A stretch of 64,000 nucleotides of DNA from contig JBAYJV010000003.1 in NCBI GenBank assembly GCA_041664925.1, positions 21,179-85,178 of the forward strand, given 5' to 3'. The position numbers and the translations under genes are program-made. This document shows positions 29,572-55,441 of the stretch, piece by piece. Positions within the stretch are counted from its first letter, which is position 1. Each line of letters begins with the position of its first letter. The notes below the pieces were generated by a model. It saw only the letters and a program-made list of their open reading frames with translations. It was not told the DNA's origin and searched no databases. This stretch comes from Minisyncoccota bacterium (GTDB lineage: Bacteria; Patescibacteriota; Minisyncoccia; JBAYJV01).

Positions 29572-29715
29572 GAATTGTTCTTTGCCCGACACAGAAGAAA
29601 GTGTCGGGTTTTTTGATAGATATTTACTTTTTATTGCAAAACACAATCTTACGAAGTCGGACTTCGTAAAATTGTTATATCTCATTGGCATTCACAAGAA
29701 AATCTAATAAAAAGC

Positions 29716-29744
29716 TTGCATTTTGGAGTGGAATGTGGTATAAT
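29716..29744 (+). promoter_or_regulatory. Cassette promoter P1: TTGCAT, 17-nt spacer, TGgTATAAT (extended -10). The same module occurs at 31089, 31648 (TTGATT), 32428 (TTGATT), 38505, 38788, 43387, 44181 and 53655
   Basis: Near-identical sequence (aaaacYcTTGCATTTTA...TGTGGTATAAT) occurs at least 9 times. The ORF track's apparent start codons at 29716, 31089 and 38505 are the TTG of the -35 box. Confidence 0.7.
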
Positions 29745-29811
29745 GAATAGTGAAAGAGAGATTAGGAGTTTCTCAGTTCAAAAACACTCAAACAAGAAGG
29801 AGAGGAAGAAG

Positions 29812-30129
29812 ATGGATCACGCGAAAGCCAGCGAAGCGATTCGTTCTTTGGTCCAAGGAAAGCCGGCGCGCTTGCAGCTCATTTTCCGAAAGGGAAAAGA
29901 CTCGATCACGGGCCTGCGACGCCTGATGGTTCGGAAGGGCGAGTGGTTCACCTACGACGACATGACCGAGATGATCATTCTCGCGGTCGTCCAGTCGAAC
30001 GATTGGGACAATGACGAGAACCGAAAGGTCGTCATTGACATCCCGGTCGTCTGCTGGGAGTTCGTCAACTGGTTCTTGCAGAGCAGCGGGATCGTGAAAG
30101 ACCTCGAGAGCATCGCGGTGGTGCACTAG
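29812..30129 (+). CDS. cassette ORF, about 105 aa (MDHAKASEAIRSL...), GC-rich, paralog of 31248
   Basis: AAGGAGAGG RBS. About 85 percent identical to 31248..31562. Terminator at 30159-30189. Confidence 0.55.
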   Translation: MDHAKASEAIRSLVQGKPARLQLIFRKGKDSITGLRRLMVRKGEWFTYDDMTEMIILAVVQSNDWDNDENRKVVIDIPVVCWEFVNWFLQSSGIVKDLESIAVVH

Positions 30130-30158
30130 GCTTGAGTCTTCACGAGTACAAGTACGGT

Positions 30159-30189
30159 GGGCGGTCAGAGGATCGCCCATCTTTTTTTT
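30159..30189 (+). terminator. Cassette terminator type 1: GGGCGGTC-AGAG-GATCGCCCATC hairpin followed by a T8 run. Repeated at about 30892, 31589 and 32377
   Basis: Four nearly identical copies lie downstream of four different cassette ORFs. Confidence 0.75.
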
Positions 30190-30369
30190 ATTATGCCTAG
30201 GTCTTGGTGTTGAGGTTAGACCTCAATAGCCACCCTAATAACCAAGTTTTGTTTATTTTGTTATTTTTAGTAAGGAGAAAAGACAAAAAAACACCAAAAA
30301 GCTTGACTTTTTAATTAAATATAGTACAATTTGTGACAGAAGTAGATAAAACCAAAGAGGAGGAAAAAC

Positions 30370-30870
30370 ATGGAAACGCGCAATGTAAGGGTACTGATTT
30401 TTGAGAAGCAAGGATGCGTGAGTGGAGTATTCGAGATCATTCCGTTTGTCTACGATTCTAGCAATACAAGTGATGAAGACCTCAAGGCTTTTGTAAGGAG
30501 ACAGGTAATCGAGACAATTCGTTCACGCGGCAGTGATTTAAGTGAAAAAGGAGAATTGGATAAAGCTCGATTCTTCCGTCCTGCTGCAGTTGAGAAGCAG
30601 AAGATTTACAGACAACTTCCATATAAAGTTGGGGATTCTTATGTTATCATTGATGCGTTTGTTTCTCGCGGTTTCAATTTCAAGCTTGATTGTCCCTGTG
30701 TTTTTGTCGAAGTTTGTCAGTCGCGAATCAATGATAATGATTTTTGGGTGAATATTTATGATGTTGACGATGCACAAGTCCCAATCTGTGTGATTCTCGT
30801 AGAAGAATATGTTTTTATTGGACCAATCTCCGATGTTGGTGACAAAGAGAAAGTTTGCGCGGGAGCGTAA
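30370..30870 (+). CDS. cassette ORF, 166 aa, hypothetical
   Basis: Own promoter TTGACT-16-TACAAT at about 30303. AGAGGAGG RBS. Type-1 terminator at 30892. Confidence 0.5.
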   Translation: METRNVRVLIFEKQGCVSGVFEIIPFVYDSSNTSDEDLKAFVRRQVIETIRSRGSDLSEKGELDKARFFRPAAVEKQKIYRQLPYKVGDSYVIIDAFVSRGFNFKLDCPCVFVEVCQSRINDNDFWVNIYDVDDAQVPICVILVEEYVFIGPISDVGDKEKVCAGA

Positions 30871-31247
30871 ATCAATCGTTAGTGAAGTTTTGATGGGCGG
30901 TCAGAGGATCGCTCATCTTTTTTTATTACATTAATTTTTAACATGACAATGTGGGAGGCTCAGCCTCCCACATATTTCTTATTTAGATGTAATCCTTCGA
31001 CTTTGCTCAGGATATATCCTTCAATAGATTCAGGACAAGAAATTTTCTATATTTCATCATAATTCAACAAGAAAATCTAATAAAAAGCTTGCATTTTGGA
31101 GTGGAATGTGGTATAATGGTTGTTAAGAAGAGAGTTGTGTATGAGTTAGTCCTTCGACTGCGTCGCGTCAAACGCGACTCCGCTCAGGATGTAAGAGCTT
31201 CTAGATTCGATAGAAGCTCATCAAGAATCTCTAACAGGAGGAAGAAG

Positions 31248-31562
31248 ATGGATCACGCGAAAGCCAGCGAAGTGCTTCGTTCTTTAGCCCAAGGAAAGCC
31301 GGCGCGTTTGCAGCTCGTTTTTCGAAAAGGAAGGGACTCGATCACGGGCCTGCGGCGCCTGATGATGCGGAAGGGCAAGTGGTTCACCTACGACTACATA
31401 ACCGAGATAATCATTCTCGCGGTTCATGAGTCGAACGATTGGGACAATGACGAGAACCGAAATGTCGTCATCAACATCCCAGTCGTCTGCGGGGAGTTCA
31501 TCGAATGGTTCTTGCAGAGCGAGATCGTGAGGGACCTCGAGAGCATCGCAGTGGTGCACTAG
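31248..31562 (+). CDS. cassette ORF, about 104 aa, paralog of 29812 (MDHAKASEVLRSL...)
   Basis: Same promoter module at 31089. The leader carries an inserted GTAAGAG-type element. Type-1 terminator. Confidence 0.55.
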   Translation: MDHAKASEVLRSLAQGKPARLQLVFRKGRDSITGLRRLMMRKGKWFTYDYITEIIILAVHESNDWDNDENRNVVINIPVVCGEFIEWFLQSEIVRDLESIAVVH

Positions 31563-31711
31563 GCTCGAGTCTTTACGAGTACAAGTACGGTGGGCGGTCA
31601 GAGGATCGCTCATCTTTTTTTAAAAATATTAAAATTACCTAAAACTCTTGATTTTTGTAGCGATGTGTGGTATAATGAGTAGTAGGAATTTGGGACTAAG
31701 AAGGAGGAAAG

Positions 31712-32356
31712 ATGACAGATCGAAGAGTTGTGCAAACGGGAAGGTACCATGGAGAGTTGTTGGATGCTTTGACTTTCGTTGAGCAACTCAACGCAGGGGG
31801 GTGGGTTGCCTCGGCGGGTATACCATGGAAGCTTCAGGAGCTTCCGGTAACCAAAGCGTCGCTTAGCGGAGAGACATTGAAGATTGAAGTTGGAGGGCAC
31901 AGTTTTGAGCTTCCGAGCGATCGCATTCTCCTTGTCGATCCTTGGACTGTCAAGGTTCTTCATACAGTCATGCGGAGACAACAGCGCAAGATGATCGACG
32001 GTGGTGGTTGGCACGAAGTGCCTGGTATAGGGGTTGCTTTTAGTGTGCGGAATCCTGCACTTGAAGAGAGTATCCGCAGGGTTCGAGATGAGAAGGCTCG
32101 ACGCGAAGAAGAAGAGCGACAGCGCCGCGAAGCTGCAGAGCACGAAGCAAAGCGCCAGGAGTTTGTCGCGCGACTCACGCAAGACTTTGTTGGCAAGAAG
32201 CTGGCAAGAATCGATGTTGTCGGCGAAGATCTCCATCTCGAGTTCGATGATGGTTCTAAGTTGTCGATCGAGCTTGCCGGTGGAGATACATATGACGCGT
32301 GGATCGATGTGAACGGAATCTCACTTCATTGTTTCAAAGCCGACACTTATCGTTGA
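31712..32356 (+). CDS. cassette ORF, 214 aa, hypothetical, GC-rich with an Arg/Glu-rich helix
   Basis: Promoter TTGATT-17-TGTGGTATAAT at 31648. AAGGAGG RBS. Type-1 terminator. Confidence 0.5.
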   Translation: MTDRRVVQTGRYHGELLDALTFVEQLNAGGWVASAGIPWKLQELPVTKASLSGETLKIEVGGHSFELPSDRILLVDPWTVKVLHTVMRRQQRKMIDGGGWHEVPGIGVAFSVRNPALEESIRRVRDEKARREEEERQRREAAEHEAKRQEFVARLTQDFVGKKLARIDVVGEDLHLEFDDGSKLSIELAGGDTYDAWIDVNGISLHCFKADTYR

Positions 32357-32456
32357 GTTTTCGCAAATCAAAGTGGTGGGCGGTCAGAGGATCGCCCATC
32401 TTTTTTATGGCAAAAACACCATTTTGCTTGATTTTTGGAGTGAGGTGTGGTATAAT

Positions 32457-32594
32457 AGGGAGTGAGAAGAGAGTTGGGATTTATGCAATACCTCTTGGCA
32501 ATGATGTGGTTGGAATGTAAAAATTCTTACTAGATCGCTGCCAAGATGGTAGCTTCCGGTGAAGTACCGGAGAATCCCGAGATGGGAGGAAACC
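32457..32594 (+). ncRNA. Long conserved 5' leader of three cassettes (GGTTGGAA, ATTCTTACTA, three hairpins, GGGAGGAAAC RBS), candidate cis-regulatory RNA. Paralogous leaders at about 44210-44337 and 54752-54861
   Basis: Blocks are conserved across three loci. Paired positions show compensatory changes (GCTGTtgaaacgACAGC versus GCTGCCaagatGGTAGC, and CCGGTggagTACCGG versus CCGGTgaagTACCGG). Confidence 0.4.
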
Positions 32595-32996
32595 GTGACG
32601 CAAAGAAAGAGTGGACAAGAGATTCTTCTCTCTAAGTCAGTCTGTTTTGCCTTGGAAATGGTACGCATCTGCCTGTGGCAAGTGCCGACGGGAGTTTATC
32701 TTCTCAATGGACCATGGATGCAGATGAATATGGCGTCCAGCCTTATGGGGAACGAAAACCATGGATGTCGGCTTGTAACATTTTCAATTCTTGTCCATCC
32801 AAACACTCGCATCAGTGCTACCTGCAATGTTCGTTGTGTGAGTGGTGAATGGAGGACGGGTACGGTCGAGATCTGGCTGCTTGATGCCGAAGGCAAAAGG
32901 CGGGATGATAAGCGCTGGAAGTTCGATTGTCGATTCAACGAGAACGGCGATGGCGGGTGGAATATCCGTTGGTTGGATCCAATCAAGAGTCAGTAG
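32595..32996 (+). CDS. cassette ORF, about 133 aa with a GTG start, distant paralog of 44338 and 54862 (the C-terminus ...WNIRWLDPIKSQ matches ...WNPKWELVPLPKKSQ)
   Basis: The GTG directly follows GGGAGGAAACC, exactly analogous to GGGAGGAAAC-ATG at 44338. Type-2 terminator at 33008. Confidence 0.45.
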   Translation: MTQRKSGQEILLSKSVCFALEMVRICLWQVPTGVYLLNGPWMQMNMASSLMGNENHGCRLVTFSILVHPNTRISATCNVRCVSGEWRTGTVEIWLLDAEGKRRDDKRWKFDCRFNENGDGGWNIRWLDPIKSQ

Positions 32997-33007
32997 GAGT
33001 AAGAAGT

Positions 33008-33047
33008 GCGGCTCGGCGACAGAGGTTGCCGGGCCGTTTTTTTTGTC
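33008..33047 (+). terminator. Cassette terminator type 2: GCGGCTCGGCGAC-AGAG-GTTGCCGGGCCG hairpin followed by T8. Copies at about 38702 and 39178
   Basis: Three near-identical copies. Confidence 0.7.
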
Positions 33048-33303
33048 TAAAAAGGCAAAAAAAGTTTTTTATTTTAGGAGAAAATTAGATATAATGGCAT
33101 ATATAATGTAATTTCAAATTTTAAAATCCAAATTACAAACACGGGATTCTTCCCCTGTACCATACGGTACAGGGTCAGAATGACCCTCCTTCGCCCATCC
33201 TTCGTTAAAACTACGGATTGGCAAGCAAGACTACGGAAGGGCGAGGCAATAATTTCTGGATTTCTGCTTTCGCAGGAATGACACAATATATATAAATAAA
33301 ATT

Positions 33304-33810
33304 ATGGAAGAAGAAAATACTTCGACAAGCTCAGTACAAGTTGCTTCGACAAGCTCAGCACAAGTTGAAAATACAGAAGATATGGGGGATATAAGAGAGA
33401 AGAGGGATACGGGAGTAGCTCTTGGACAAGACTCAGGGCAAGTGGTTGAGGAAATACAAGTTGAATCGCAAGCAGATTCATCGCAACCATCTTCGCCTGA
33501 AATTACTGAGCCGGTTTTGCCGACGGTTCAGGTTGAGGAGACGCCAGTTGTTGCGCCGACGCAAAGCGCGAATTTTGATTTGCAAGGATTGGCAGAAAAA
33601 ATGAAGGCGGCGATTTTTGGAAGACGCGAGAAAAAATTGGCGAAAATTTTAGATTATTTGAATGCGAATGGGAAAATTAAAAATGAGGAGATTAGAAAAT
33701 TAGTCAGAGTTTCCAGCGCAACCGCTACGAGATATATGAATATTTTAGAAGAAAGAAAACAAGTTGAACAAATTAGAACAAAAAGACATGCTTTTTATAA
33801 GAAAATTTGA
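33304..33810 (+). CDS. hypothetical protein with a C-terminal winged-helix-like DNA-binding region
   Basis: Acidic, low-complexity N-terminus. C-terminus LAKILDYLNANGKIKNEEIRKLVRVSSATATRYMNILEE is HTH-like. Confidence 0.4.
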   Translation: MEEENTSTSSVQVASTSSAQVENTEDMGDIREKRDTGVALGQDSGQVVEEIQVESQADSSQPSSPEITEPVLPTVQVEETPVVAPTQSANFDLQGLAEKMKAAIFGRREKKLAKILDYLNANGKIKNEEIRKLVRVSSATATRYMNILEERKQVEQIRTKRHAFYKKI

Positions 33811-34126
33811 GATAGCTCTATGGCTCACATTGCGGGTTTGAATGGAGATTTCTATGGCTCAAATGGAAGAAATGAGCCATAGGGTGAGCCATTAAAAATA
33901 TAATAGAATATAGAAGTTAGAAGATAGAGGATAGAAGATAGAATAATTACAAACATCAAACATTAAATACGGGATGACATTTTTGTCCCCGGCGAGCCGG
34001 GGCCTCATAAAACCAATGATTCTCTCGCCTTTGGCGGATCATCAGGTTTTATGGGTTGTCCTCTTGTTATCTGGGGGCGTTTACTGGTAAAATAGGAACA
34101 GGTTTGCGTTTTGTTATTTACTTGAT

Positions 34127-34624: not shown

Positions 34625-34747
34625 TTTGTTTTGTTATATTAAATTAAAAAAATGATTAAATTAAAAAAAGCCAATCATGGCGCACGACCGGCATTAAGAA
34701 AAGCCCTTAAAAAGCACAAGAGAAAATAATATTAATTAAAATATATT

Positions 34748-35209: not shown

Positions 35210-35224
35210 TAATTAGGTATTTTT

Positions 35225-37648
35225 ATGGAGAAATTCTTTTTTGGAGCTGTTTTTGTGATTGTTATTGGCGCTTTGTTTTTTGCTGGGCGGATTATTTTCA
35301 AAAAAAGAAAGAAGGGACACCTGGGAAATCTCTTGGGAATGTCTCTTTTTTTAATTAGGCTACCGAAAAACGAAAGAAAACTTAAAGAGGGCGAGACGAG
35401 CAGGGATTTTCGCGAAAAAATTGGTGCGATTGAACAATTTTATGCGAGTTTTTCAGGTTTGACTCGCAAGGGATGGAAAAAGTTTATTTATGGGTTACCC
35501 AGAATAACAGTTGAGATAGCTAATACAATTCAACAAGAAGAAGTCGGTTTTTATATTTCTGTGCCAAAGGGACTCGAGGCTCAAGCCAAGAAACATCTTC
35601 AGGGAATTTATCCGGAAGCTGAAATCGATCGCTGCGAAAAAGATTATAATCCATTTGTTCCTCAAGGAGAATCGGCTGGAGGGTATTTTGTTTTGAGAAA
35701 AGATATTTTATTGCCCTTGAATACTTATACAAATCTCAAAATTGATCCATTAGCGCAAATCACCAATACGCTTAGCAATATTTTTCCAGAAGAAGGAGCG
35801 GCGGTTCAACTGGTGATCAGGCCAGCTAATAATAAATGGAATGAAAAAGCCAAAGAAGCGGTCAAACAACTAGGCGAAGGCAAGAAATTTTCGGATATAA
35901 AAAAAGGCATGAATATACCTGCTGGACTTGGAAGCGAATTTAAAAAACTTGTAACCATGGAGAATAAAGATGAAGAAGAAAAGGTTCAAAGAGTTGATGA
36001 GACTACTCTGGAATTGGTAAAGAATAAATCCCAAAAAACATTATTCGAAGCAAATATTAGAATTGTAGCATCATCACAAGATAAGATGTCTGTCAAGAGA
36101 ATTCTCGATGCTTTGGTCGCAGCTTTTGGTCAATATGATTTGAATCAGGGAAATTCTTTGGAATTTATCAATCTTAAGAAAAAACCATTGAAGCAGATGT
36201 TTTATAATTTTAGTCTGCGATTTTTTGATACGAAAAAAATAGTTATTTTGAATGCGGAAGAATTGGCAAGCATTTTTCATTTATCGATTGAAAATCTTAG
36301 AACGCCAAAGATAAAAACCCTAAAAACCGCGAAGGCGCCTATACCTGTCGAACTTCCCGATGCTGGACCAGTTATTTTGGGTGAGGCAACATTTAGAGAA
36401 GAAACGAAAAAAGTTTATTTTGCGACCGATAACGATCGCCGCAGACATTTTTATATTATTGGACAAACCGGTACTGGTAAAACATCTCTCTTAAAAGAAA
36501 TGATCCGTCAAGATATTGAGGCTGGTCGGGGCGTTGGTGTGGTTGATCCTCACGGAGATTTGATTGAAGATACGCTATCGAATATTCCGCTTCATCGCCG
36601 AGACGATGTCGTTCTATTTGAACCATTTAATACGGAAAATCCAGTGGGACTAAATATGCTTGAATATGACACAGAGGAACAAAAAGATTTTGCGGTTCAG
36701 GAAATGGTTGCGATTTTCCAAAAACTTTTCCCGCCAGAAATGATCGGGCCGATGTTCGAACATTATATGAGAAATGCGATGTTGGCGCTAATGGCTGACA
36801 AAGATGATCCGGGAACGCTAGTCGAAATTCCAAGAATCTTTACCGATGATTTATACATGGAAGAACGACTAGCTAAAGTTAAAGATTTGGTAGTGAGGCA
36901 ATTCTGGGAAAAAGAATGGAAGAAAACAACAGGACAAACCAGATCTGATATGCTTGGCTATGTTGTCTCCAAAGTTGGCCGATTTGTCGAAAATGCGATG
37001 ATGCGCAACATTATTGGTCAAGCGCATTCGGGTGTCAACTTGTCCGACATCATGGACAAAGGAAAAATCTTTCTGGCGAATCTTTCCAAAGGTCAAACTG
37101 GCGAGGTTAATAGTTCTTTGCTTGGACTTATTCTTGTCAGTAAATGTCAAATGGCAGCCATGAGGCGAGGCAATATTCCGGAAGATCAAAGACGAGATTT
37201 TTACTTGTATGCCGATGAGTTTCAAAACTTTACCACCGATTCAATTCCGACGATTTTATCAGAGGCTCGCAAATATAGACTCAATCTAATTTTATCTCAT
37301 CAATTTATTGCCCAACTTCAAGACAATATCAAAGACGCGGTCTTCGGGAATGTCGGCTCAATTTTATCGTTCAGAGTTGGCGTTGAGGACGGCGAGAGAT
37401 TGGAAAAGCAATTTGAGCCGGATTTTACAAGACAAGACATCATCAATCTGCCAAACTACGAGGCGATTATAAAACTGATGATTAATGGCCAAGTCAGCTC
37501 GTCTTTCCGCATGAAAACCACTGCGCCCAAGATTGGCGACAGAGCTCAAATCCAAGCAATTAAAGATATTTCAAAATTAAAATATGGAAGAAAAAAGGAA
37601 GAAGTTGAAAAAGATATTGCCAGGAGGGCAAAGTTAGGAAGTTTATAA
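35225..37648 (+). CDS. Membrane-anchored P-loop ATPase of the TraG/TraD/VirD4-like coupling-protein or AAA_10-like type
   Basis: N-terminal TM helix. Walker A IIGQTGTGKTSLL. Walker-B-like LYADEFQNF. 807 aa. Confidence 0.5.
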   Translation: MEKFFFGAVFVIVIGALFFAGRIIFKKRKKGHLGNLLGMSLFLIRLPKNERKLKEGETSRDFREKIGAIEQFYASFSGLTRKGWKKFIYGLPRITVEIANTIQQEEVGFYISVPKGLEAQAKKHLQGIYPEAEIDRCEKDYNPFVPQGESAGGYFVLRKDILLPLNTYTNLKIDPLAQITNTLSNIFPEEGAAVQLVIRPANNKWNEKAKEAVKQLGEGKKFSDIKKGMNIPAGLGSEFKKLVTMENKDEEEKVQRVDETTLELVKNKSQKTLFEANIRIVASSQDKMSVKRILDALVAAFGQYDLNQGNSLEFINLKKKPLKQMFYNFSLRFFDTKKIVILNAEELASIFHLSIENLRTPKIKTLKTAKAPIPVELPDAGPVILGEATFREETKKVYFATDNDRRRHFYIIGQTGTGKTSLLKEMIRQDIEAGRGVGVVDPHGDLIEDTLSNIPLHRRDDVVLFEPFNTENPVGLNMLEYDTEEQKDFAVQEMVAIFQKLFPPEMIGPMFEHYMRNAMLALMADKDDPGTLVEIPRIFTDDLYMEERLAKVKDLVVRQFWEKEWKKTTGQTRSDMLGYVVSKVGRFVENAMMRNIIGQAHSGVNLSDIMDKGKIFLANLSKGQTGEVNSSLLGLILVSKCQMAAMRRGNIPEDQRRDFYLYADEFQNFTTDSIPTILSEARKYRLNLILSHQFIAQLQDNIKDAVFGNVGSILSFRVGVEDGERLEKQFEPDFTRQDIINLPNYEAIIKLMINGQVSSSFRMKTTAPKIGDRAQIQAIKDISKLKYGRKKEEVEKDIARRAKLGSL

Positions 37649-37667
37649 TAAATTTTAAAATAAAATC

Positions 37668-38367: not shown

Positions 38368-38877
38368 TTCGTCCTCCTTGTTTTGACGAAAAGAACTTAC
38401 TATAACACTAGCATACAAACATCCCTTTGTCAATACTTATATCGATATATCGGAGGCTAAGCCTTCGATTTTTTTGTTAAAAAGAATAAAATTACCCAAA
38501 ACCCTTGCATTTTAATATTAATTGTGGTATAATAGGTAATGAAAGAAGGTTAGGGTTCAGCAACTCAAAAGTACTCAAACATCAAGCAAGAAGGAGGAAG
38601 TACGAAAGCACTAAAATGGGTTCTGATTATCGGCGGCATTGTGGGATTGATCTTCGGAGTTGGTTGCGCATTACTATGGATGGGTGTAGGCGGATAAGAA
38701 GTGCGGTCTGGCGACAGAGGTTGCCGGGCCGTTTTTTTATTAAAATCTGTCGAGGACGGTCCTAGACAGTTTTTATACCCAAAACACTTGCATTTTAGAT
38801 TAAGGTGTGGTATAATAGATAATGAAAGAAGGTTAGGGTTTTCACTCAAAAGCGCTCAAAGAAGGAGGAAGAGAGAA

Positions 38878-39171
38878 ATGATAAAGGCGACCGTTGATCT
38901 TCACGGTTTTGGTGCTAGAGGCAATAATGCAGAGATCATGGCTCAGCAGATTTTCGACGAGTTCGGCGACGATCTCAGGAAGAGTGTGATCGTGGTGCCA
39001 TGCGAATCGCAGCCTCTCAAAGAGGACATGTTCGCAGAGCCATTCGTCAGGGTCTTTGCTGACAGTCCCGAGACTGCGTCAAAGATCAAGAAAGCAATCG
39101 GGCGAGTGAATTTCAAACTCAGCGTTCAGGTGGTGTCCGCTGATTCTGAGTTCTACTCAGCGAGCGATTAG
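38878..39171 (+). CDS. cassette ORF, 97 aa, acidic (MIKATVDLHGFGARG...)
   Basis: Promoter module at 38788. AAGGAGGAAG RBS. Type-2 terminator at 39178. Confidence 0.5.
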   Translation: MIKATVDLHGFGARGNNAEIMAQQIFDEFGDDLRKSVIVVPCESQPLKEDMFAEPFVRVFADSPETASKIKKAIGRVNFKLSVQVVSADSEFYSASD

Positions 39172-39214
39172 TGGAAGTGCGGTCCGGCGACAGAGGTTGC
39201 CGGGCCGTTTTTTT

Positions 39215-39360
39215 TATTCCCCCGTCAAAAAAAGCATTTTTTTTATTCTCCCGCCAAAAAAATCTGAAGTTCTGTTTCAGATTTTTTTATTCTCCCTGCC
39301 AAAAAAGTATTTTTTTATTCTCCCGTCAAAAAAACACCAAATTATTTATAAACAAAATTA
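39215..39360. repeat. Four tandem T7-A7 tract repeats of about 33 bp (TTTTTTTATTCYCCYGYCAAAAAAA)
   Basis: Seen directly. They sit between convergent genes, and one unit carries an internal palindrome. Confidence 0.6.
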
Positions 39361-40307: not shown

Positions 40308-40336
40308 AATTTATCGAAGTCCGACTTCGATAAATT
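40308..40336. repeat. Palindrome AAATTTATCGAAGTCCGACTTCGATAAATT. Inverted-identical copy at about 41165-41194 on the other side of RAYT copy 2
   Basis: Seen directly. Confidence 0.85.
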
Positions 40337-40427: not shown

Positions 40428-41132
40428 ATGAAAAGGCCAGAATTTTTTTGTAATAAAATATATCATATTTATAACCGCGGCGTTGATAAGAGAAATATAT
40501 TTTTAGACGACATTGATAGATTTCGTTTTATTCACGATTTATTTGAATTCAATGATATTAATCCGGTATTTAATGCTGGTTATAATTTTAGAAACAAATC
40601 TATTGAAGTCGGACTTCAATATATTGATAATAAAAATAAACCGAGAAAATTATTGGTTGAGATTTTGGCTTTTTGTTTAATGCCGAATCATTTTCACTTA
40701 CTTTTGAGACAGAGAAAAGAGAATGGAATTACTGAATTTATGAGAAAATTAGGAACCGGTTATACCAATTATTTTAATCAAAAATATACAAGATCTGGCG
40801 TCTTGTTTCAGGGTAAATTTAAAGCTTTACTAATAGAAAAAGAAACTCATTTTATATATCTTCCACATTATATCCATACAAATCCACTAGACCTGACAGA
40901 TGCTAAGTGGCGACAAGATGGTATTTCAGGCTTAAATAAAATATTAAAGTTTTTAGAAGAATACCGTTGGAGCAGTTTACCCGATTATTTAAATAAGAAA
41001 AATTTTCCTTCAATTACTCAGCGTAATTTTCTTTTAGAAATTTTCGGAGGAGAGAAACAATACAAAAAAGATTTAACAGATATTATAAAAAATGGAAATT
41101 TTGAGGAAATAAAAGATTTAGTTTTTGAATAG
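40428..41132 (+). CDS. IS200/RAYT-like HuH tyrosine-transposase-like protein, copy 2
   Basis: YHIYNRG, PNHFHLLL (HuH), SGVLFQGKFKA and YIHTNPLD motifs. Confidence 0.75.
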   Translation: MKRPEFFCNKIYHIYNRGVDKRNIFLDDIDRFRFIHDLFEFNDINPVFNAGYNFRNKSIEVGLQYIDNKNKPRKLLVEILAFCLMPNHFHLLLRQRKENGITEFMRKLGTGYTNYFNQKYTRSGVLFQGKFKALLIEKETHFIYLPHYIHTNPLDLTDAKWRQDGISGLNKILKFLEEYRWSSLPDYLNKKNFPSITQRNFLLEIFGGEKQYKKDLTDIIKNGNFEEIKDLVFE

Positions 41133-43121: not shown

Positions 43122-43475
43122 AATTTTATAATAAATCATAAAGAACTAGCAGTAATTGCTAGTTTTTTATTGAAAAAAATTCATACTTGCCCTTCCGAAG
43201 CCTTGGCGTAGGAGGGCTTGTCCGTCCGAAGTCCCGGCTCGCCGGGACGAAGGAGGGTCATTCTGACCCCGGCAAGCCGGGGGAAGAATCTCTGAATTAT
43301 AGCTTTGAATTTTAAGTTATGGTTTTCCTGCCTGCCGGTAGGCATGGGAGTTTTGCGCTTTGAATTTTGATTTTTCACTCAAACTCTTGCATTTTATGCT
43401 TAATTGTGATATAATAGGTAATGAAAGAAGAGTTAGGGTTTCGTCAAACACACAAGCGAAAGAAGGAGGAAGAGA

Positions 43476-44027
43476 ATGGAGCGTTCGGTTTTCATGAAAG
43501 ATGGCGGAAATTGGGTTTGCACAAGTGGGCCGGACGAGATGTTTGTTTCTTCTGCGGTTCGGTCGGTTTTGACAGCTTTCTCAACTTCGGCGATAAATCT
43601 TGTTCGCACTTCAGACGGCGATCTGGTGATCGAGACTGAGGGTTGGGATGTTGTTCGTCGAAACAAGGTGATTTATCGAGGAGCATATCATGGGTTTTTC
43701 GATCTACAGAATGTCGGCGAAGTTGTCGCGGAATTGAAGGAGGCTTTGTTCTCACGATCTGTTCAGATCGGTGTTCTTGAGAGCTCAGAGATCAATGATC
43801 TCGTTTTCGATTTCATATCGAGGTTTCTTGACAGCCCGGAAAACGACATCGAGAAGAAGTTCAAAGCGGTTCTCGTCGTGATCCACGGAGGCGCGAGGAC
43901 GCGAGAAGAAGTCGAGCGTCTTGTCGAGCTTGAGTGGTGGAAGCTTCTGGCTGCGGTTCAACTTGCTCGTTCGGAGCAGATGAGCGCAGTCGAAGTTCTC
44001 GACCTTCTCGAACCAGTCGCCGCTTAG
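43476..44027 (+). CDS. cassette ORF, 183 aa, paralog of 54128
   Basis: Promoter module at 43387. AAGGAGG RBS. Conserved C-terminus AVEVLDLLEPVAA. Type-3 terminator. Confidence 0.55.
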   Translation: MERSVFMKDGGNWVCTSGPDEMFVSSAVRSVLTAFSTSAINLVRTSDGDLVIETEGWDVVRRNKVIYRGAYHGFFDLQNVGEVVAELKEALFSRSVQIGVLESSEINDLVFDFISRFLDSPENDIEKKFKAVLVVIHGGARTREEVERLVELEWWKLLAAVQLARSEQMSAVEVLDLLEPVAA

Positions 44028-44061
44028 GAGAGCGGTTCGTACTGGTAGAATTGGTGGATCC

Positions 44062-44096
44062 GTCCCGGTAGAAGTTTACCGGGACGTTTTTTTTAT
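44062..44096 (+). terminator. Cassette terminator type 3: conserved GCTTAGGAGAGCGG block, then a GTCCCGGTA-GAAGTT-TACCGGGAC hairpin and a T-run. Copies at about 44829 and (variant) 54681
   Basis: Three copies. The stop codon is embedded in the conserved GCTTAGGAGAGCGG block. Confidence 0.7.
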
Positions 44097-44337
44097 TTCT
44101 GTCATTCTGAATGGTTCGACAAGCTCACCATAAATTCCACGAAGAATCTCATGTTTTACAATTGATTTTCATCAAATCCATTGCATTTTACACTTAATTG
44201 TGGTATAATAGATGATAAGAGAAGAGTTTGGGGTTTTCTTTCAATAGCGACTTGGTTGGAAATTTATTCTTACTAATTCGCTGTTGAAACGACAGCCTTC
44301 GGTGGAGTACCGGAGAAATCCCGAAACGGGAGGAAAC

Positions 44338-44784
44338 ATGTCAAAAAAGATTACACTCACGAACACAACGGCGTTGGCACTGCAGATGGCGCAGGCATGC
44401 GCTGTACGTGCGTATGGCGAGTTGGAGAATCGTTTGTTCCTGCACTCGGAATACGATCCAATGGATTTTGTCTGGCAGGATGGCAATGGTGAAAGGATTG
44501 TTGACGGATCAATATGGTTCTATCCCCAGGACAGTGTTTCCATTAACTTCAAGTGTACTCTTAACTACGAGTACAGGAAGTTCACAGAAGCAACAGTTGT
44601 GATTAGGAGATGGGAGAAAGAAGACAAGAAGTTCATTTGTACCATTGAGGCCGGTGAGTTGCGGGTAGTTGACTGCAACGCCGAAGCTAAGAAGACTGAA
44701 GAAGTACCTGTTTCTCGTGGATTCTGGCGATCACTCGCCGATTTCTTCACGAGAAAACATGGTGCGAAGAAACTCTCGGTCTAG
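44338..44784 (+). CDS. cassette ORF, 148 aa (MSKKITL...), behind the long structured leader
   Basis: The ATG directly follows GGGAGGAAAC. Type-3 terminator. Confidence 0.5.
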   Translation: MSKKITLTNTTALALQMAQACAVRAYGELENRLFLHSEYDPMDFVWQDGNGERIVDGSIWFYPQDSVSINFKCTLNYEYRKFTEATVVIRRWEKEDKKFICTIEAGELRVVDCNAEAKKTEEVPVSRGFWRSLADFFTRKHGAKKLSV

Positions 44785-45110
44785 TCACTGCTTAGGAGAG
44801 CGGTTCGTCCCGGTAGAATTGGCGGACCCGTCCCGGTAGAAGTTTACCGGGACGCTTTTTTTATTGAAATTTATGTCATTCTTGCGAAGGCAGGAATCCA
44901 GTAACAATAAACAAAAACCGTCTAGGACCGTCCCGATAAAATAAATCCTCGACAGTTTTTGACATATGTGGGAGGCTGAGCCTCCCACATATGTCAGGGA
45001 AAATGGTATTGAGGTCAAACCTCAACACTTTCTTAATCTTATTTTGCTCGTCCTGCTTGGTTCGGTGGATTCGATAAACTCACCACAAACAAGCTCACCA
45101 TAAACTCCAC

Positions 45111-45316
45111 GAAGGAACTTGTCCTGAGAGAAGTCGAAGGAACTTGTCCTGAGAGAAGTCGAAGGAACTTGTCCTGAGAGAAGTCGAAGGAACTTGTCCT
45201 GAGAGAAGTCGAAGGAACTTGTCCTGAGCGAAGTCGAAGGAACTTGTCCTGAGCGAAGTCGAAGGAACTTGTCCTGAGCGAAGTCGAAGGAACTTGTCCT
45301 GAGCGGAGTCGAAGGA
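45111..45316. repeat. Tandem array of 8 units of 25 bp (GAAGGAACTTGTCCTGAGAGAAGTC), the reverse complement of the dispersed CCTTCGACTTCKCTCAGGACAAG motif
   Basis: Seen directly. The overlapping minus-strand ORFs in the track are judged repeat artefacts. Confidence 0.8.
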
Positions 45317-45449
45317 TTGACTTTTCTCCATTAAGCATATACACTAAAATTAGTTCTTCAAAAAGTCCGCCTACGCCTTTTGGCTACGGCGAGACGTAAG
45401 AGCTTGTAAATTCGCAGGCTCATCAACAATCTCTAACGGAGGCGATACA

Positions 45450-46976: not shown

Positions 46977-46991
46977 ACAAGGAGAGAGAAA

Positions 46992-47165: not shown

Positions 47166-47173
47166 GGAGGAAA

Positions 47174-47506: not shown

Positions 47507-47724
47507 AGCGGAACGCTTTTTTTGATTTTTGATTTTTTAATGATAAGATAAGGAAAGTTCTTTGAAAATATATAATTAATATAGTCCTTCGACTGGAACT
47601 GCAAATAGCGATACCCTCCTTCTCCCGCCTGCCTGCCGGTAGGCAGGGCAAGCCGGGATACGGAAGGGTGTAAGTTTTTCTATTTTCTCTCTTATGGTTC
47701 GAAAAGAAAAACTAACAACGGAGG

Positions 47725-48390: not shown

Positions 48391-48462
48391 CAATCTACGG
48401 AATAACAAAACCCACCTAAGAGTTAGGCGGGTTTTTTAAGTTTAAAATTTAAAGTTAAAAGT

Positions 48463-50211: not shown

Positions 50212-50227
50212 GATGTAAATTAAAAAC

Positions 50228-53200: not shown

Positions 53201-53428
53201 ACCGCCCGGCGCAACATAAGCCTCAACGCCAATAATCGGTTTGATGTTTCGAGCCTTGGCTTTTTGATAGAACTCAATAGCGCCGTACATGACGCCATGA
53301 TCAGTCAGCGCAATTGCTTCCATTCCATCTTTTTCGCATTTATCGAGAATTTCATCAATCTTGGAAAGCCCATCAAGCAAGGAATAATGGGAGTGGACAT
53401 GCAAATGTGTAAACAAAGATTTCGCCAT
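50228..53428 (-). CDS. dnaE: DNA polymerase III alpha subunit
   Basis: N-terminal PHP domain HLHVHSHYSLLDG. 1066 aa. The whole length is polIII-alpha-like. Confidence 0.9.
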   Translation of the reverse strand: MAKSLFTHLHVHSHYSLLDGLSKIDEILDKCEKDGMEAIALTDHGVMYGAIEFYQKAKARNIKPIIGVEAYVAPGGMKNKQSKSDALNYHLTLLAKNEKGYKNLLKLTTLAHLEGFYYRPRVDYDLLENYSEGVIALSGCLSGHIPKTILSGKIDEAKKIILRMKEIFKKGDFYLELQHHPGLEEQEIVNKAMAKLAKELDVQIVATQDSHYINPDDALAQDILVAVQTGNKVYDEDRMTMKNYDFSLKSPEEMTKSFKDYPSSIETTQDIAKKCDVKLDLETIHLPKFDLPEGETDLLLYLRKLVDVGIKKRLKKEADTKVVKDRINYEFSIIEKTGYASYFLIVQDFINWAKNNGIVVGPGRGSAAGSLVSYALNITDVNPLEYDLMFERFLSPDRISMPDIDIDFTDMRRDEVIEYARQRYGQDRVAQIITFGTMASRMAIRDVGRALGISYSFCDQIAKMIPFGYSLKQSLEEVTELRDLCEKDENAKKLIKYAKKLEGVVRHASTHACGVVITEDPLSNFTPLQYASQSDKTIVTQYEMHAVESLGLLKMDFLGLKNLTVIENTLKIVKATRGQRIKVSDIPLDDDKAFKLLRDGKTIGIFQLESGGMTRYLKQLKPTEMEDIIAMVALYRPGPMELIPSFIRRKHGLEAPEYIHPKLKKGLERTYGIIVYQEQIIQLAQELGGLTYTEADQLRKAVGKKIEKLLAAQEKKLIEGMIKNGIDKNIARQIWQFIKPFARYGFNRSHAACYAHIAYETAYLKAHFPAEFMAALMTSESANIDRIAKLVDATRDMGIEVLPPDINESWENFTIVKPEKENSSPNKIRFGLTAIKNVGDHLIDAMIQERKTDGPYKNIEDFIERVNHKDLNKKSLESLIKAGVLDSFESRSTLLGNVENILKIAKENQKNKANGQTSLFSGQDVKDLNLKLKKYPDVDGQETLRWEKELLGLYVSSHPLEKYRKTLEKKTFPIDNIDTSFGFNGSTQKIGGIISSIKRVVTKKGDQMVFVELEDLTGKIEVIVFPKMLRRDPSIWVEDKIILVEGKIDTRSDVAKMICEKVQELK

Positions 53429-53738
53429 AGCCTACAGGGTTAAAAAAGTTTAAAGTTTAAAGTGAAAAGTTCAAAATTACAGTGTAAAATTTAAAATCAT
53501 AAATTCTTCCAACATTTTGCACTTTTCCATCTTCCGCCAAGGTTCTCCGACATTTTGTCGGAGGTTCTTCCTTTTAACTTTTCACTTCCTTTCTATTCTA
53601 AACTTTTTTATACTAACTTCAATTGGGGATAAGTGTCAAAATTCCACAAAACTCTTGCATTTTACACAATATTGTGCTATAATGTATAGTGAAAGAAAGG
53701 TTAGGGTTTTCGGTTTGAAAATACGCTAAGGAGGCAAA

Positions 53739-54131
53739 GTGAAAGACGGCAAAGTTGTGATTCTTGTCGTGGATGACAGTTTTCCCGACTGGAAACACGA
53801 ATGGGAACATGAGCTTCCCGATGGCGTTGAGGTCGTTTCGACTATGGAGCTTGAGGAAGGCAGGAGGCTTTTCCAGGAGCGCAAGAACGAAATCGACATC
53901 ATCGTCATTGATTATCAGGTCATCGGCGGAACGACGCCGGATCTGATTCGTGAAATCAAAGCATCGGGATTTAAGGGAGTGGTAATTGGCGTGTCTTACA
54001 CGACAATTCAACCGCTCATCGACGCTGGTTGCGATTACACTTGTGACCGCAAGTGTCTGTTCCACGATCGTGAACTTAACATCTTCGGTCACCTCGAGGA
54101 AGAAATCGCGAAAGCGAGGAGGGCGGAATGA
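53739..54131 (+). CDS. stand-alone receiver (REC/CheY-like) domain protein, GTG start
   Basis: ILVVDD acidic pocket. IIVIDYQ places a candidate phospho-Asp. Transcribed from cassette promoter module 53655. Translationally coupled (ATGA) to the next ORF. Confidence 0.5.
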   Translation: MKDGKVVILVVDDSFPDWKHEWEHELPDGVEVVSTMELEEGRRLFQERKNEIDIIVIDYQVIGGTTPDLIREIKASGFKGVVIGVSYTTIQPLIDAGCDYTCDRKCLFHDRELNIFGHLEEEIAKARRAE

Positions 54132-54670
54132 GGGTTACGTTCTTGAGGCAAAGAAAAGGTATACAGATGGAGACTGTCAGAGGAGCCGACAGTATCGGTT
54201 CCTACGATGTCGTAAGGAGAATTGTGGAACTCCTGGAAAGTTCGGCAACGAACTTGATCAGGGCGGGTAAAGACAATCTATTCCTCTACTCCTACGATAC
54301 CGTCACGGATGAACCAGTTTGTGATGTGTACCATGGATTTTTCGATAGTGATCGTAGATACTTACTCATCATTCTTCTGTATCAGGAATTGGACAGGAGA
54401 TTGAGAGATAAAAATCTCAATGGGTTTGAGGAGGGATTCGTCGGTGTTTACATGCCGGGACTTCTCGATAATCCAGAGATTAGTATCGAAACAAAGTTCA
54501 AGACGGTTGCTGCCGTTCTCTATGGCGGGGCGCGGCGACGAAGTGATGTCGAGCGTCTCATGGAGAAGGATTGGAAGGATCTCATCGCGGCGATCCGAAT
54601 CGCTCAGAGTGAGGGAATCGGCGCGGTCGAGGTTCTCAATTTCATCGAACAACAACCAGTTGCCGCTTAG
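54128..54670 (+). CDS. cassette ORF, 180 aa, paralog of 43476
   Basis: The shared C-terminus AVEVLNFIEQQPVAA matches AVEVLDLLEPVAA. Type-3-like terminator at 54681. Confidence 0.5.
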   Translation: MRVTFLRQRKGIQMETVRGADSIGSYDVVRRIVELLESSATNLIRAGKDNLFLYSYDTVTDEPVCDVYHGFFDSDRRYLLIILLYQELDRRLRDKNLNGFEEGFVGVYMPGLLDNPEISIETKFKTVAAVLYGGARRRSDVERLMEKDWKDLIAAIRIAQSEGIGAVEVLNFIEQQPVAA

Positions 54671-54861
54671 GAGAGCGGCCTGTCCCCCGGTAAACGACCG
54701 GGGGACTTTTTTATTGAAAAATATTGCATTTTATTAATTATATAGTATGATAAATTTGTTTCTTGATAGCGAATTGGTTGGAAAATATTCTTACTAATTT
54801 GCTGTCAAGACAGACAGTTATCTAGCAATCGGGCTGGATATTCCCAAGACAGGGAGGGTGT

Positions 54862-55287
54862 ATGGATTTTGTAAGTCGTGTCAATCAAAATCAGTCTAAA
54901 CATACTGCTCTTTTGGTGGCAGAACAGGCCTTTCGTCATAATTTTCCTGACGCCAAAATCATTGGAATTGATGGAGTGTTCAATTTTCTTTATATGGACG
55001 AGACGATACCACATTTGCTTGCGATTATTGATTACAGTTTTGAGACGGAAGAATGGCAGTGCCGAAAAGGAAAAAAGTATAACCAAGTTAGGATCTCTGT
55101 TAGTTTAAGAATGCATAGAGATTTTCCAACCTGGGTTCCTGTTGAAACGGTTAAAGTCATAAAGTTAGAAGAGTTTATTGAAGTCGATATCAAAACAGCT
55201 GAGTTTATTGTCAAAACAAGTCATGATGCCATGAGAGAATGGAATCCTAAGTGGGAACTTGTTCCTTTGCCGAAAAAAAGCCAATAG
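54862..55287 (+). CDS. cassette ORF, 141 aa, distant paralog of 32595 and 44338
   Basis: Third copy of the long leader. Variant promoter TTGCAT-16-TATGAT at about 54724. Hairpin terminator at about 55296-55328. Confidence 0.45.
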   Translation: MDFVSRVNQNQSKHTALLVAEQAFRHNFPDAKIIGIDGVFNFLYMDETIPHLLAIIDYSFETEEWQCRKGKKYNQVRISVSLRMHRDFPTWVPVETVKVIKLEEFIEVDIKTAEFIVKTSHDAMREWNPKWELVPLPKKSQ

Positions 55288-55441
55288 AGTTTCATTCAGG
55301 GGAGTCAGCGTGCTTCCCTGTTTTTTTGATTAAAAAAACTTATGTTATTTTATATTATTTCTATACCACTAATGAAATATGTGGGAGGCTCAGCCTCCCA
55401 CATATTTCAAATTCAAATATTAAATATGATATAATTTTAAT

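Follow-up and report, generated by a model that had tools for sequence, protein, structure and literature searches.

Cassettes and their module in the window

Here, we describe a set of short expression cassettes that share one promoter module and a few terminator designs, found in a 64-kb stretch of DNA (64,000 nucleotides of contig JBAYJV010000003.1, assembly GCA_041664925.1), hereafter the window. The stretch is part of the chromosome of an uncultured Candidatus Paceibacterota (candidate phyla radiation, CPR; Patescibacteria), available as a metagenome-assembled genome. Eleven cassettes (C1 to C11) carry open reading frames (ORFs) of at least eight families without sequence kinship. They represent a real but apparently clade-restricted case of promoter reuse and not a new kind of mobile element. 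Genomes of CPR bacteria are small, roughly half of the genes in them lack an assigned function and, to our knowledge, almost nothing is known about their promoters and regulons. The features are listed below by window position; (+) denotes the forward strand, SD the Shine-Dalgarno sequence, REC a receiver domain and GC3 the GC content at third codon positions.

1050–1078 (+), module-like promoter with 3 mismatches and without the module leader, 5' of a 67-aa CxxC...CxxC ORF (1122–1325)
12991–13019 (+), module-like promoter, 5' of a 39-aa acidic ORF (13177–13296) and a 39-codon transmembrane ORF (13394–13513)
29716–29744 (+), C1 module promoter, from -35 TTGCAT to -10 TATAAT
29812–30129 (+), C1 payload, 105 aa, ORFan, GC3 0.81, paralog of C3
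30156–30187 (+), T1 terminator, copy 1
30303–30330 (+), C2 variant promoter, TTGACT-N16-TACAAT
30370–30870 (+), C2 payload, 166 aa, ORFan, host-like GC3 of 0.35
30892–30923 (+), T1 terminator, copy 2
31089–31117 (+), C3 module promoter
31140–31245 (+), extra repeat element in the C3 leader (hairpin, GATGTAAGAG, hairpin, AATCTCTAAC, SD), not in the C1 leader
31248–31562 (+), C3 payload, 104 aa, 81% identical to C1, GC3 0.74
31589–31620 (+), T1 terminator, copy 3
31648–31676 (+), C4 module promoter, TTGATT variant
31712–32356 (+), C4 payload, 214 aa, ORFan whose middle part is charged, GC3 0.49
32375–32406 (+), T1 terminator, copy 4
32428–32456 (+), C5 module promoter
32490–32597 (+), structured leader RNA, copy 1 (covariance model 103 bits; fold z -5.7)
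32595–32996 (+), C5 payload, 133 aa, GTG start, 'trio' family
33008–33045 (+), T2 terminator, copy 1
38505–38533 (+), C6 module promoter
38602–38697 (+), C6, truncated 31-codon remnant with an ATG to ACG start (intact sister gene: L168 2807–3325)
38703–38739 (+), T2 terminator, copy 2
38788–38816 (+), C7 module promoter
38878–39171 (+), C7 payload, 97 aa, ORFan, GC3 0.61
39179–39216 (+), T2 terminator, copy 3
43387–43415 (+), C8 module promoter
43476–44027 (+), C8 payload, 183 aa, founder of the 'C8 family'
44006–44097 (+), T3 module: last C8 codons, stop within the GCTTAGGAGAGCGG hairpin, then GTCCCGGTA-GAAGTT-TACCGGGAC and a T run
44181–44209 (+), C9 module promoter
44236–44341 (+), structured leader RNA, copy 2 (covariance model 110 bits; fold z -4.4)
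44338–44784 (+), C9 payload, 148 aa, 'trio' family, sister-species ortholog 69–73% identical
44774–44865 (+), T3 module, copy 2, 89% identical to 44006–44097, with a C8-type 3' coding remnant in another frame within C9
53655–53683 (+), C10 operon module promoter
53739–54131 (+), C10a, 130 aa, stand-alone REC-like
54128–54670 (+), C10b, 180 aa, C8 family, start overlapping the REC stop (ATGA)
54665–54713 (+), T3-variant terminator: GCTTAGGAGAGCGG, then GTCCCCCGGT-AAAC-GACCGGGGGAC and a T run
54724–54752 (+), C11 variant promoter
54758–54864 (+), structured leader RNA, copy 3 (covariance model 85 bits; fold z -5.4)
54862–55287 (+), C11 payload, 141 aa, 'trio' family, host-like GC3 of 0.34, L090 ortholog 68% identical
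55297–55328 (+), fourth terminator type, CAGGGGAG-TCAGCGTG-CTTCCCTG and a T run

Strain-level variation was considered and rejected: 20.5 kb of the window are identical to the ENA contig ERZ27249449:k141_481756 and the only difference from a 327-kb JGI contig (Ga0376277_0000246) is one 25-nt repeat unit.

Promoter module and terminators

In its core form the module promoter reads TTGCATTTT-N9-TGTGGTATAAT. The pattern TTGCATTTTA-N8-TGTGGTATAAT with up to three mismatches occurs 11 times in the window, always on the forward strand, compared with 0.01 expected occurrences. All nine positions proposed in the initial annotation were recovered (29716, 31089, 31648, 32428, 38505, 38788, 43387, 44181 and 53655), and two copies (1050 and 12991) lie outside the interval it had considered. 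No further copies were found in the 64-kb window, to which this census refers. The variant promoters that had been placed at about 30303 and 54724 are also present and belong to C2 and C11. From 24 instances (window and seven related loci) the consensus c.aAAaCtc TTGCATTTTa-N-TRTGnTATAAT ..a.A.TGAAAGArrrGTTAGGGTTT was obtained, composed of an A-rich upstream stretch, the -35 element TTGCATTTT, the extended -10 element TRTGnTATAAT and the initial transcribed motif RTGAAAGArrrGTTAGGGTTT. In the same alignment the similarity fades about 25–30 nt upstream of the -35 element; terminal or boundary repeats are not obvious by eye at the module edge, an inspection not backed by a targeted search for inverted repeats or target duplications. 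Promoter-carrying repeats of the MITE/Correia type would have terminal inverted repeats and a target-site duplication at their ends. The idea of a leader shared by all copies had to be narrowed. About five window copies (29716, 38505, 38788, 43387 and 53655) are close to the leader as first quoted, and its ungapped pattern matches only twice because of a 1-nt indel.

Over the 53-nt module core the copies are 60–85% identical and as alike between genomes as within one, with the exception of the pairs C1/C3 and C6/C7; the 52 nt at 29694–29745 of C1 are even identical to the C3 copy. Apart from these two pairs, the equal likeness within and between genomes suggests that a short motif is constrained, and not that copying or conversion was recent. 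Recent gene conversion as a source of the likeness was thus rejected, as the identity matrix reveals no within-genome clustering beyond these two pairs.

The initial annotation had also considered that the consensus might simply be the generic housekeeping promoter of this organism. Sigma-70-like matches 5' of the tRNA-Leu gene, of radical-SAM genes and in several other intergenic regions follow TTGAC(A/T)/TTGGCA-N16-18-TAnAAT, and none of them carries TTGCATTTT, the TGTGG extension or the leader; judged by its motifs, the module promoter is distinct from this general type. The bare 20-base promoter core was found once each in 73 unrelated viral contigs but never with the leader, which means that the hexamers alone are simply near-consensus.

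Terminators are reused as well. Type T1, GGGCGGTC-AGAG-GATCGCCC with a T run, occurs in four copies (30156, 30892, 31589 and 32375) and T2, GCGGYYCGGCGAC-AGAG-GTTGCCGGGCCG with a T run, in three (33008, 38703 and 39179), as had been reported. T3, GTCCCGGTA-GAAGTT-TACCGGGAC with a T run, is represented by two copies (44061 and 44829) and one variant (54683) instead of three equal copies, and the three designs have to be supplemented by a fourth that closes C11 and both cassettes of the related locus L090. All these 3' hairpins are GC stems of 8–13 bp followed by T6-8, i.e. intrinsic terminators, and their type tracks the genomic neighbourhood, not the ORF family.

A near-palindromic hairpin, CTGTCGAGGACGGTCCTAGACAG, was observed at cassette borders, either just 5' of a module promoter or just 3' of a cassette terminator (38747–38769 and about 44925–44960 in the window, 5278–5305 in L005, 2675–2700 in L168). 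It could be an insulator, a repetitive extragenic palindromic (REP) sequence or a recombination site.

Payload genes: coding status, evolutionary rate and families

One ORF of 97–214 aa had been assigned to each module. This does not apply to the module at 38505, which is followed by the 31-codon remnant, nor to that at 53655, which precedes a two-gene operon with overlapping stop and start. The remnant (38602–38697, ACG start) and the ORF at 13394–13513 (ATA start) are both hydrophobic single-helix ORFs located 4 nt past a GGAGG; both start codons are near-cognate, and the former ORF is what is left of a larger gene.

Rates of nonsynonymous (dN) and synonymous (dS) substitution were compared between the window and the sister species represented by contigs L005/L168. 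The housekeeping proteins DnaE, SHMT (serine hydroxymethyltransferase), ThrRS (threonyl-tRNA synthetase) and a HAD hydrolase show 86–97% amino acid identity and dN/dS of 0.04–0.15, with dN of about 0.05 for SHMT and ThrRS. For the syntenic payloads C8 and C9 the identity is 56–73%, dN/dS 0.19–0.27 and dN 0.19–0.32. As dS is similar in both classes (0.5–1.2 in housekeeping genes, about 1.0–1.2 in payloads for between-species pairs), the payloads evolve 4–6 times faster than neighbouring genes, which agrees with the diversifying small-protein family that the initial annotation had listed among its options. Payload differences are most frequent at third codon positions, followed by first and then second ones, and dN/dS ranges from 0.19 to 0.47 overall, the upper value being that of the within-genome pair C1/C3 (81% identical in amino acids, 89% in nucleotides). 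From the codon-position pattern and dN/dS below 1 it follows that the payloads are translated genes under purifying selection; by these sequence statistics they are genuine protein genes, and the suspicion that they could be untranslated is opposed.

This bears on the view that the cassettes consist of an ordinary strong promoter or of GC-rich non-coding RNAs with spurious ORFs. It can refer to hexamers near the sigma-70/sigmaA consensus, to the single viral matches and to the fact that GC-rich DNA yields long ORFs on both strands. But the sigma-70-like matches 5' of the tRNA-Leu and radical-SAM genes differ, the window holds no more module copies elsewhere, the flanking and leader motifs are common to the copies too, and the ORFs have a coding pattern with dN/dS below 1 and belong to no Rfam RNA family. 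This view is already largely refuted and we give it almost no credence. Its non-coding variant was rejected also because Rfam returned only two tRNAs and the codon statistics are those of coding DNA.

The payload families that share the module comprise {C1, C3}, the C8 family (C8, C10b and relatives), the trio (C5, C9 and C11) and the singletons C2, C4, C7, the C6 remnant and the REC-like C10a. Links across families were detected neither by all-against-all blastp nor by profile-profile comparison with hhalign or six-frame tblastx. Of the two paralog pairs for which 70–85% identity had been given, 29812/31248 (C1/C3) falls in this range, but 43476/54128 (C8/C10b) shares only 37–39% protein identity. 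Within the trio the identity is 16–27% and not significant in BLAST, yet the leader is common to all three.

One could therefore think of a single ancient family in which whole cassettes were duplicated and payloads diverged past recognition behind conserved control regions. The trio displays exactly such a pattern, and protein evolution is fast. However, profile-profile comparison gives no signal between families, the modelled architecture of C8 (β-sheet plus six-helix bundle) is different from the REC fold, and a C8-type 3' remnant lies behind C9, so recombination and not just divergence joins ORFs to flanks. We regard such a common descent as very doubtful. Deep common ancestry of the families was rejected on hhalign probabilities below 1%, and an origin of new payloads from old ones by overprinting or frame-shift on the empty tblastx comparison between families.

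Homology provides little on function: searches of Pfam, PHROGs and PADLOC gave nothing significant for the payloads apart from a weak REC match. The stand-alone REC domain that had been recognized in C10a is weakly but really supported by similarity. It matches the receiver 3jte in the PDB with E=2.5e-4 (residues 8–75 only), but remains below threshold for Pfam PF00072 Response_reg (E=0.018, 15.6 bits against a cut-off of 30.2 bits); DD at residues 12–13 and a D in IIVIDYQ can be recognized by eye. C10a is the best conserved payload, with 52–83% identity in 7 relatives. Of 1.84e9 representative proteins no more than 7 clusters belong to the C8 family, and a search of 5.8e9 proteins gave 3 matches to it. 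The AlphaFold2 model of C8, with a predicted local distance difference test (pLDDT) value of 84, consists of an N-terminal β-sheet domain and a C-terminal bundle of six helices and has no meaningful match in PDB or BFVD (best TM-score in BFVD 0.33), and the model of the trio family (pLDDT 48) is unusable for fold comparison. No relatives of the C8 family, C4, C1 or REC were found in IMG/VR. Signal peptides or lipoboxes are not evident by eye in the payload proteins, for which no formal test was made.

Distribution, synteny and turnover in relatives

The exact promoter-plus-leader pattern gave no match in 185,579 GTDB species genomes and one locus (L005) in JGI metagenomes. Homologs of C8, REC and trio proteins led to more contigs (L086–093 and L167–175), all of which carry the module; wherever the contigs are long enough to show flanking genes it resides at the same loci as in the window (L005/L168, L167, L170–172, L086–089 and L090–093). 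Beyond this handful of sister genomes the payloads have no relatives. The GTDB genomes closest by DnaE (L026, L006 and L007, 74–75% identity) keep the gene order, but neither the module nor a payload homolog is present in the 80 fetched GTDB loci, these three genomes included. At the loci covered, among them the dnaE locus, the three have short AT-rich spacers without any stretch of at least 47% GC. L086, with 76% DnaE identity, does hold one unit. From this pattern we infer that the module-bearing set is clade-restricted.

At shared loci the sister genomes keep the module and differ in payload and copy number. Between o37668 and miaA the sister species has one cassette with a 172-aa protein of two transmembrane segments, and the window contains a truncated copy of this gene (ATG to ACG, 31 codons) plus the unrelated C7. 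Upstream of dnaE three C8-family paralogs are found in L168 versus REC, C10b and C11 in the window. Moreover, the last ~22 nt of C8-type coding sequence together with the stop and the T3 terminator lie 3' of the stops of the unrelated C9 and L5c; these remnants read as recombination scars. Duplication, which had been suggested as one explanation, is thus well founded.

Some payloads recur together. An operon of module, REC and C8-family gene exists in the window, L170, L171 and L172, an operon of module, structured leader, trio gene and REC lies between dnaE and hrcA in L086 and L090, and at the thyX locus of both the window and the sister species a C8-family gene lies next to a trio gene. According to this linkage REC, C8 family and trio family are probably partners in signalling or regulation.

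Base composition and the question of foreign origin

That the payloads are GC-rich is true for nine of them (GC 0.47–0.56 on a window background of mostly 0.30–0.40) but not for C2 and C11. Compared with core genes, GC3 is 0.49–0.81 in module-driven ORFs and 0.20–0.35 in housekeeping genes; the variant-promoter payloads C2 (0.35) and C11 (0.34) are host-like. This means that GC-rich payloads go with the module and host-like GC3 with the variant promoters. Module-driven ORFs of relatives have GC3 of 0.50–0.60 (L168), 0.48–0.55 (L170–172) and 0.41–0.42 (L086). The shift is a general one, with G- and C-ending codons both enriched, arginine up and lysine down. Translational selection was tried as a cause and rejected: dnaK, grpE and acpP of the relatives reach only 0.29–0.42, and G-ending purine codons are enriched too. 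GC3 is high in all lineages in spite of dS of about 1, so it looks maintained rather than like a fading foreign signature. Polarized third-position changes, counted to look for amelioration, are small in number and were inferred by biased parsimony; they are 67 GC>AT versus 47 AT>GC in cassettes and 146 versus 270 in housekeeping genes.

Such composition raises the question whether expression-ready units (phage morons, or plasmid- or integron-type cassettes) were acquired horizontally from a GC-richer donor and scattered by integration. The GC3 difference with its general codon and amino acid shift would fit, as would the ORFan nature of the genes, the own promoter and terminator of each unit and a VirD4/TrwB-like ATPase gene nearby (35225–37648). 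The surroundings do not. The cassettes are embedded among dnaE, thrS, glyA, thyX, miaA and a HAD hydrolase gene, and further neighbours encode an Asp/Lys-type tRNA synthetase, ComEC and an [FeFe] hydrogenase. Phage genes were not seen near the cassettes (about 30 window ORFs scanned with Pfam, payloads compared with PHROG), and an integrase is present neither among these ~30 ORFs, which are part of those in the window, nor among the called genes of L001/L002; an attC-like core was not found either. Payloads have no relatives in IMG/VR as listed above and no PHROG or PADLOC match, the BFVD fold search gave nothing usable, and viral matches to the bare promoter core are single and without leader. 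Finally, the units have kept their loci and passed vertically between species that differ by dS of about 1, with GC3 still at 0.5–0.6. Taken together, we consider foreign acquisition improbable. The moron-like units that the initial annotation had proposed are not supported in view of absent viral relatives, absent PHROG matches and housekeeping neighbours, and neither is integron-like capture, as every unit has its own promoter, no integrase is seen and the hairpins are plain terminators.

Leader RNAs

The trio genes are preceded by a leader of about 105 nt, known from three window copies (32490–32597, 44236–44341 and 54758–54864) and four copies in relatives. Three hairpins make up its structure, the first of them long; in the third, UCCC pairs with the first bases of the SD sequence GGGAGG. 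In the alignment of the seven sequences 93.8% of cells are paired, and there are 10 compensatory pairs versus 4.6±1.5 in shuffles (0/500) and 0–3 in slid controls. An alternative helix, GCUGUY/RACAGC, which vies with the base of the long hairpin, is 100% paired with 3/6 pairs compensatory. Single-sequence fold z-scores are -4.4 to -5.7. Strong matches of the covariance model are these seven copies only, and Rfam has no match to this leader (window at gathering thresholds; 29600–33100, holding copy 1, at E<=1). We suggest that it is a candidate switch-like cis-regulatory RNA, for which seven sequences give good but not conclusive support. Weak model matches on the opposite strand, L171 27–115 (-) with 22 bits and L168 18644–18729 (-) with 19 bits, sit between dnaE and the first cassette promoter and could be decayed leader remnants or chance hairpins.

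The simple leaders of the other cassettes are A/G-rich and fold worse than shuffled controls (z +1.24), leaving the strong SD open. A mini-ORF in the leaders of C6 and C7 (ATG AAA GAA GGT TAG just past the -10 element) was examined and rejected as unconserved; its first codon varies between ATG, GTG, TTG, ATA and TAG among the copies and the 1-nt indel destroys its stop.

A different, dispersed leader-like element is composed of a GC hairpin, (G)ATGTAAGAG, a second hairpin, AATCTCTAAC and an SD immediately before the start codon. It is found at 13040–13170, 13300–13393, 31140–31245 and 45350–45445 as well as at 7130–7215 of L005, i.e. inside the C3 leader, not in that of its paralog C1, and also 5' of unrelated genes. 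It may resemble a miniature inverted-repeat transposable element (MITE) that supplies its own ribosome-binding site.

Relation to known systems

The initial annotation could not match the pattern to any described system, but a published definition covers it. Putative mobile promoters (PMPs) were defined by Matus-Garcia, Nijveen & van Passel (2012, PMC3488235) as upstream regions that share 80% identity or more in an alignment of 50 nt or longer while both the downstream and the upstream coding sequences are non-homologous. With 170-nt upstream regions blastn yields nine such pairs: C6-C7 (85%/88 nt), C7-C8 (83%/99), C6-C8 (90%/60), C6-C9 (82%/60), C8-C9 (84%/55), C4-C6 (81%/63), C10-C6 (82%/72), C10-C7 (82%/65) and C10-C8 (80%/61). 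Downstream, no matches across families exist (the homologous pairs C1/C3 and C8/C10b were left out); upstream lie thyX before C8, dnaE before C10, and a 169-aa ORF with an antisense ORF before C6, and inside the 29.7–33 kb cluster the upstream neighbour is another cassette. The cassettes are therefore PMPs in the operational sense, with highly similar regions before non-homologous genes of one genome. They differ from PMPs in several respects: reuse extends to the terminators, a conserved part of the module is transcribed as leader, every payload is an ORFan specific to the clade and deviant in GC3, and the module is kept at syntenic loci across species.

Strict promoter mobilization would mean that small non-coding elements travelled to resident genes, the promoter-leader of about 85 nt to their front and the terminators, independently of it, to their rear. 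The nine aligned pairs and the unrelated payload families are in line with this, as is a genome full of REP/MITE-like repeats with two Y1 transposases resembling REP-associated tyrosine transposases (RAYTs). On the other hand, at the loci examined the payload genes themselves are missing from module-free relatives, i.e. genes and module appear together, and this co-occurrence is more easily reconciled with the expansion of a regulon or gene family than with promoters that inserted before silent genes already in place. Homology ends about 25–30 nt upstream of the -35 element without boundary repeats obvious by eye (no formal search), and GC-rich payloads accompany the module as host-like GC3 accompanies the variant promoters. 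Mobilization of the promoter as such is thus unlikely.

Phage morons and early 'host-takeover' modules, as in Bacillus phage SPO1, consist of small uncharacterized ORFs, each equipped with a strong promoter, an equally strong SD and a terminator, and deviate in composition from their surroundings. The cassettes have the autonomous promoter and terminator and a composition unlike their flanks, but they lack phage context and viral homologs and are inherited vertically in the chromosome instead of residing in a prophage. Integron cassettes have no promoters of their own, carry an attC site at their end and depend on the IntI integrase, a tyrosine recombinase found with attI beside the array. Here, too, arrays of short unrelated same-strand ORFs are bounded by repeated hairpin-forming sequences, but every cassette has -35 and -10 elements, the hairpins are GC stems with T runs, and no IntI-type recombinase occurs among the ~30 scanned ORFs or the called genes of L001/L002. 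Borrelia erp loci are located on cp32 prophage plasmids and encode surface lipoproteins. The 'upstream homology box' (UHB) of the erp/ospE/ospF family (Marconi et al. 1996, J Bacteriol 178:5615, as cited in PMC10016077) is comparable in that a near-identical promoter and 5' region precedes divergent, recombining ORFs, and the shared box means co-regulation in Borrelia. The present units are in contrast chromosomal, several unrelated folds share the box, and signal peptides or lipoboxes are not evident by eye. The module also recalls the 5' mRNA stabilizer STAB-SD of Bacillus thuringiensis cryIIIA (Agaisse & Lereclus 1996, as cited in PMC3997798) by a purine-rich SD-like GAAAGAAGG predicted near the 5' end of a presumably highly expressed mRNA and upstream of the real SD. 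This is a resemblance only, and the conserved TTAGGGTTT part of the module has no known counterpart in STAB-SD. Beyond these known kinds the cassettes add terminator reuse, a transcribed leader, an apparently new leader RNA, the linkage to REC and a maintained GC3 anomaly in a CPR bacterium.

Origin and possible role of the cassettes

We consider it reasonably probable that the cassettes are a clade-specific co-regulated set of fast-evolving ORFans, whose module and terminators spread by duplication and recombination from an ancestral operon of leader, trio gene and REC gene. The ancestral unit would have been an operon between dnaE and hrcA consisting of the module, the structured leader RNA, a trio gene and a REC gene. 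In the lineage of the window, module and terminators would then have been copied to other loci, where local duplication together with recombination between shared flanks could place unrelated ORFs behind the same control region. Payloads would follow birth-and-death evolution, being gained, lost, truncated and quickly diverging, and the simple-leader cassettes look like deletion derivatives that retained the first ~25 nt of the leader. A sigma-70/sigmaA-type holoenzyme would fire all units, and the conserved upstream stretch and positions +1 to +25 are probably the site of one common factor, an mRNA 5' stabilizer or a standby site. In the trio leader, occlusion of the SD by the 3' hairpin and the two mutually exclusive helices would constitute a post-transcriptional switch.

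Several points weigh against this scenario. Orthologous promoter-plus-leader regions of the sister species are 68–81% identical compared with 58–74% for most other spacers, one of which even reaches 84%; this modest excess locates the constraint in short motifs and not in the whole 120 nt. Promoter strength, transcription start site and co-regulation of the units are predictions from sequence, the common trans-acting factor is a postulate, for which the winged helix-turn-helix (wHTH) protein encoded at 33304–33810 is one candidate, and the likely ancestral operon was proposed from a few metagenomic contigs. The comparison with relatives covers loci other than the C1-C5 region, and the covariation refers to seven sequences. 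Finally, the origin of the unrelated ORFs and GC3 of 0.5–0.8 are left unexplained, and a general compositional shift would normally suggest foreign DNA.

A bolder and improbable variant regards the modules as 'expression sockets' with ORF swapping, combined with an undescribed system of REC, C8-family and trio proteins under a switch-like leader RNA. Promoter-leader and terminators would then serve as short homology arms through which paralogous loci exchange ORFs. As a ComEC gene is present, the exchange might even extend to other strains by natural transformation, and an incoming ORF would be expressed immediately. GC-biased repair in the course of frequent recombination would explain why GC3 is 0.5–0.8 only in socketed ORFs in a genome at 0.3, and the three-part system might be used in the episymbiotic lifestyle.

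Current concepts are not overturned by these cassettes; their value lies in an experimental entry point and in a well-documented propagation of a regulatory module. They provide a sequence-defined regulon signature together with strongly signalled, fast-evolving lineage-specific genes, the kind expected to mediate interaction with hosts, phages or competitors. They also represent a clean natural case of promoter and terminator reuse with visible recombination scars, offer a candidate new structured leader RNA with covariation support and raise an unexplained case of locally maintained high GC3.

Other repeats and minor features of the window

Two IS200/Y1-transposase-like (RAYT-like) genes, 40428–41132 and 55442–56125, are each placed between copies of their own palindromic repeat. 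The palindrome AATTTATCGAAGTCCGACTTCGATAAATT flanks the former at 40308 and 41165 and is a member of the 7-copy GAAGTCNNACTTC family, and ATATGTGGGAGGCTSAGCCTCCCACATAT, with 7 window copies (7329, 29196, 30929, 44946, 46131, 55359 and 56070), flanks the latter at 55359 and 56070. The arrangement looks like REP/RAYT systems, here in a CPR genome.

Between C9 and the gene of a 142-aa membrane protein a tandem array (45110–45330) comprises about 9 copies of the 25-nt unit CGAAGGAACTTGTCCTGAGMGAAGT; two metagenome assemblies of this organism disagree by a single unit in the length of the array. Periodic repeats of 63 nt (26054–27169, at least 10 copies, 60–70% identity) lie inside an 846-aa ORF (24643–27183) without Pfam match and point to a repeat protein. 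A GC-rich block (0.43–0.46) at 60860–62650 consists of degenerate repeats of 12/96-nt periodicity around CCTTCGACTTCGCTCAGGGCAAGCCAA without a long ORF, and pieces resembling it, TCCTTCGAC...GCTCAGGA, occur at 14170, 30990 and 46706. Degenerate AT-rich repeats of the AAAGT/TAAAA type fill intergenic regions at 5314–5450, 7931–7997, 10689–10879, 21851–22015 and 53435–53501, the one that separates dnaE from the C10 promoter being among them.

The gene of the 39-aa acidic peptide (13177–13296) is situated 1.6 kb 5' of a radical SAM/SPASM enzyme gene (14900–16270), which is followed by moderately GC-rich ORFs (GC 0.45–0.48; region 14900–18422). Together they may form a locus for a ribosomally synthesized and post-translationally modified peptide (RiPP).

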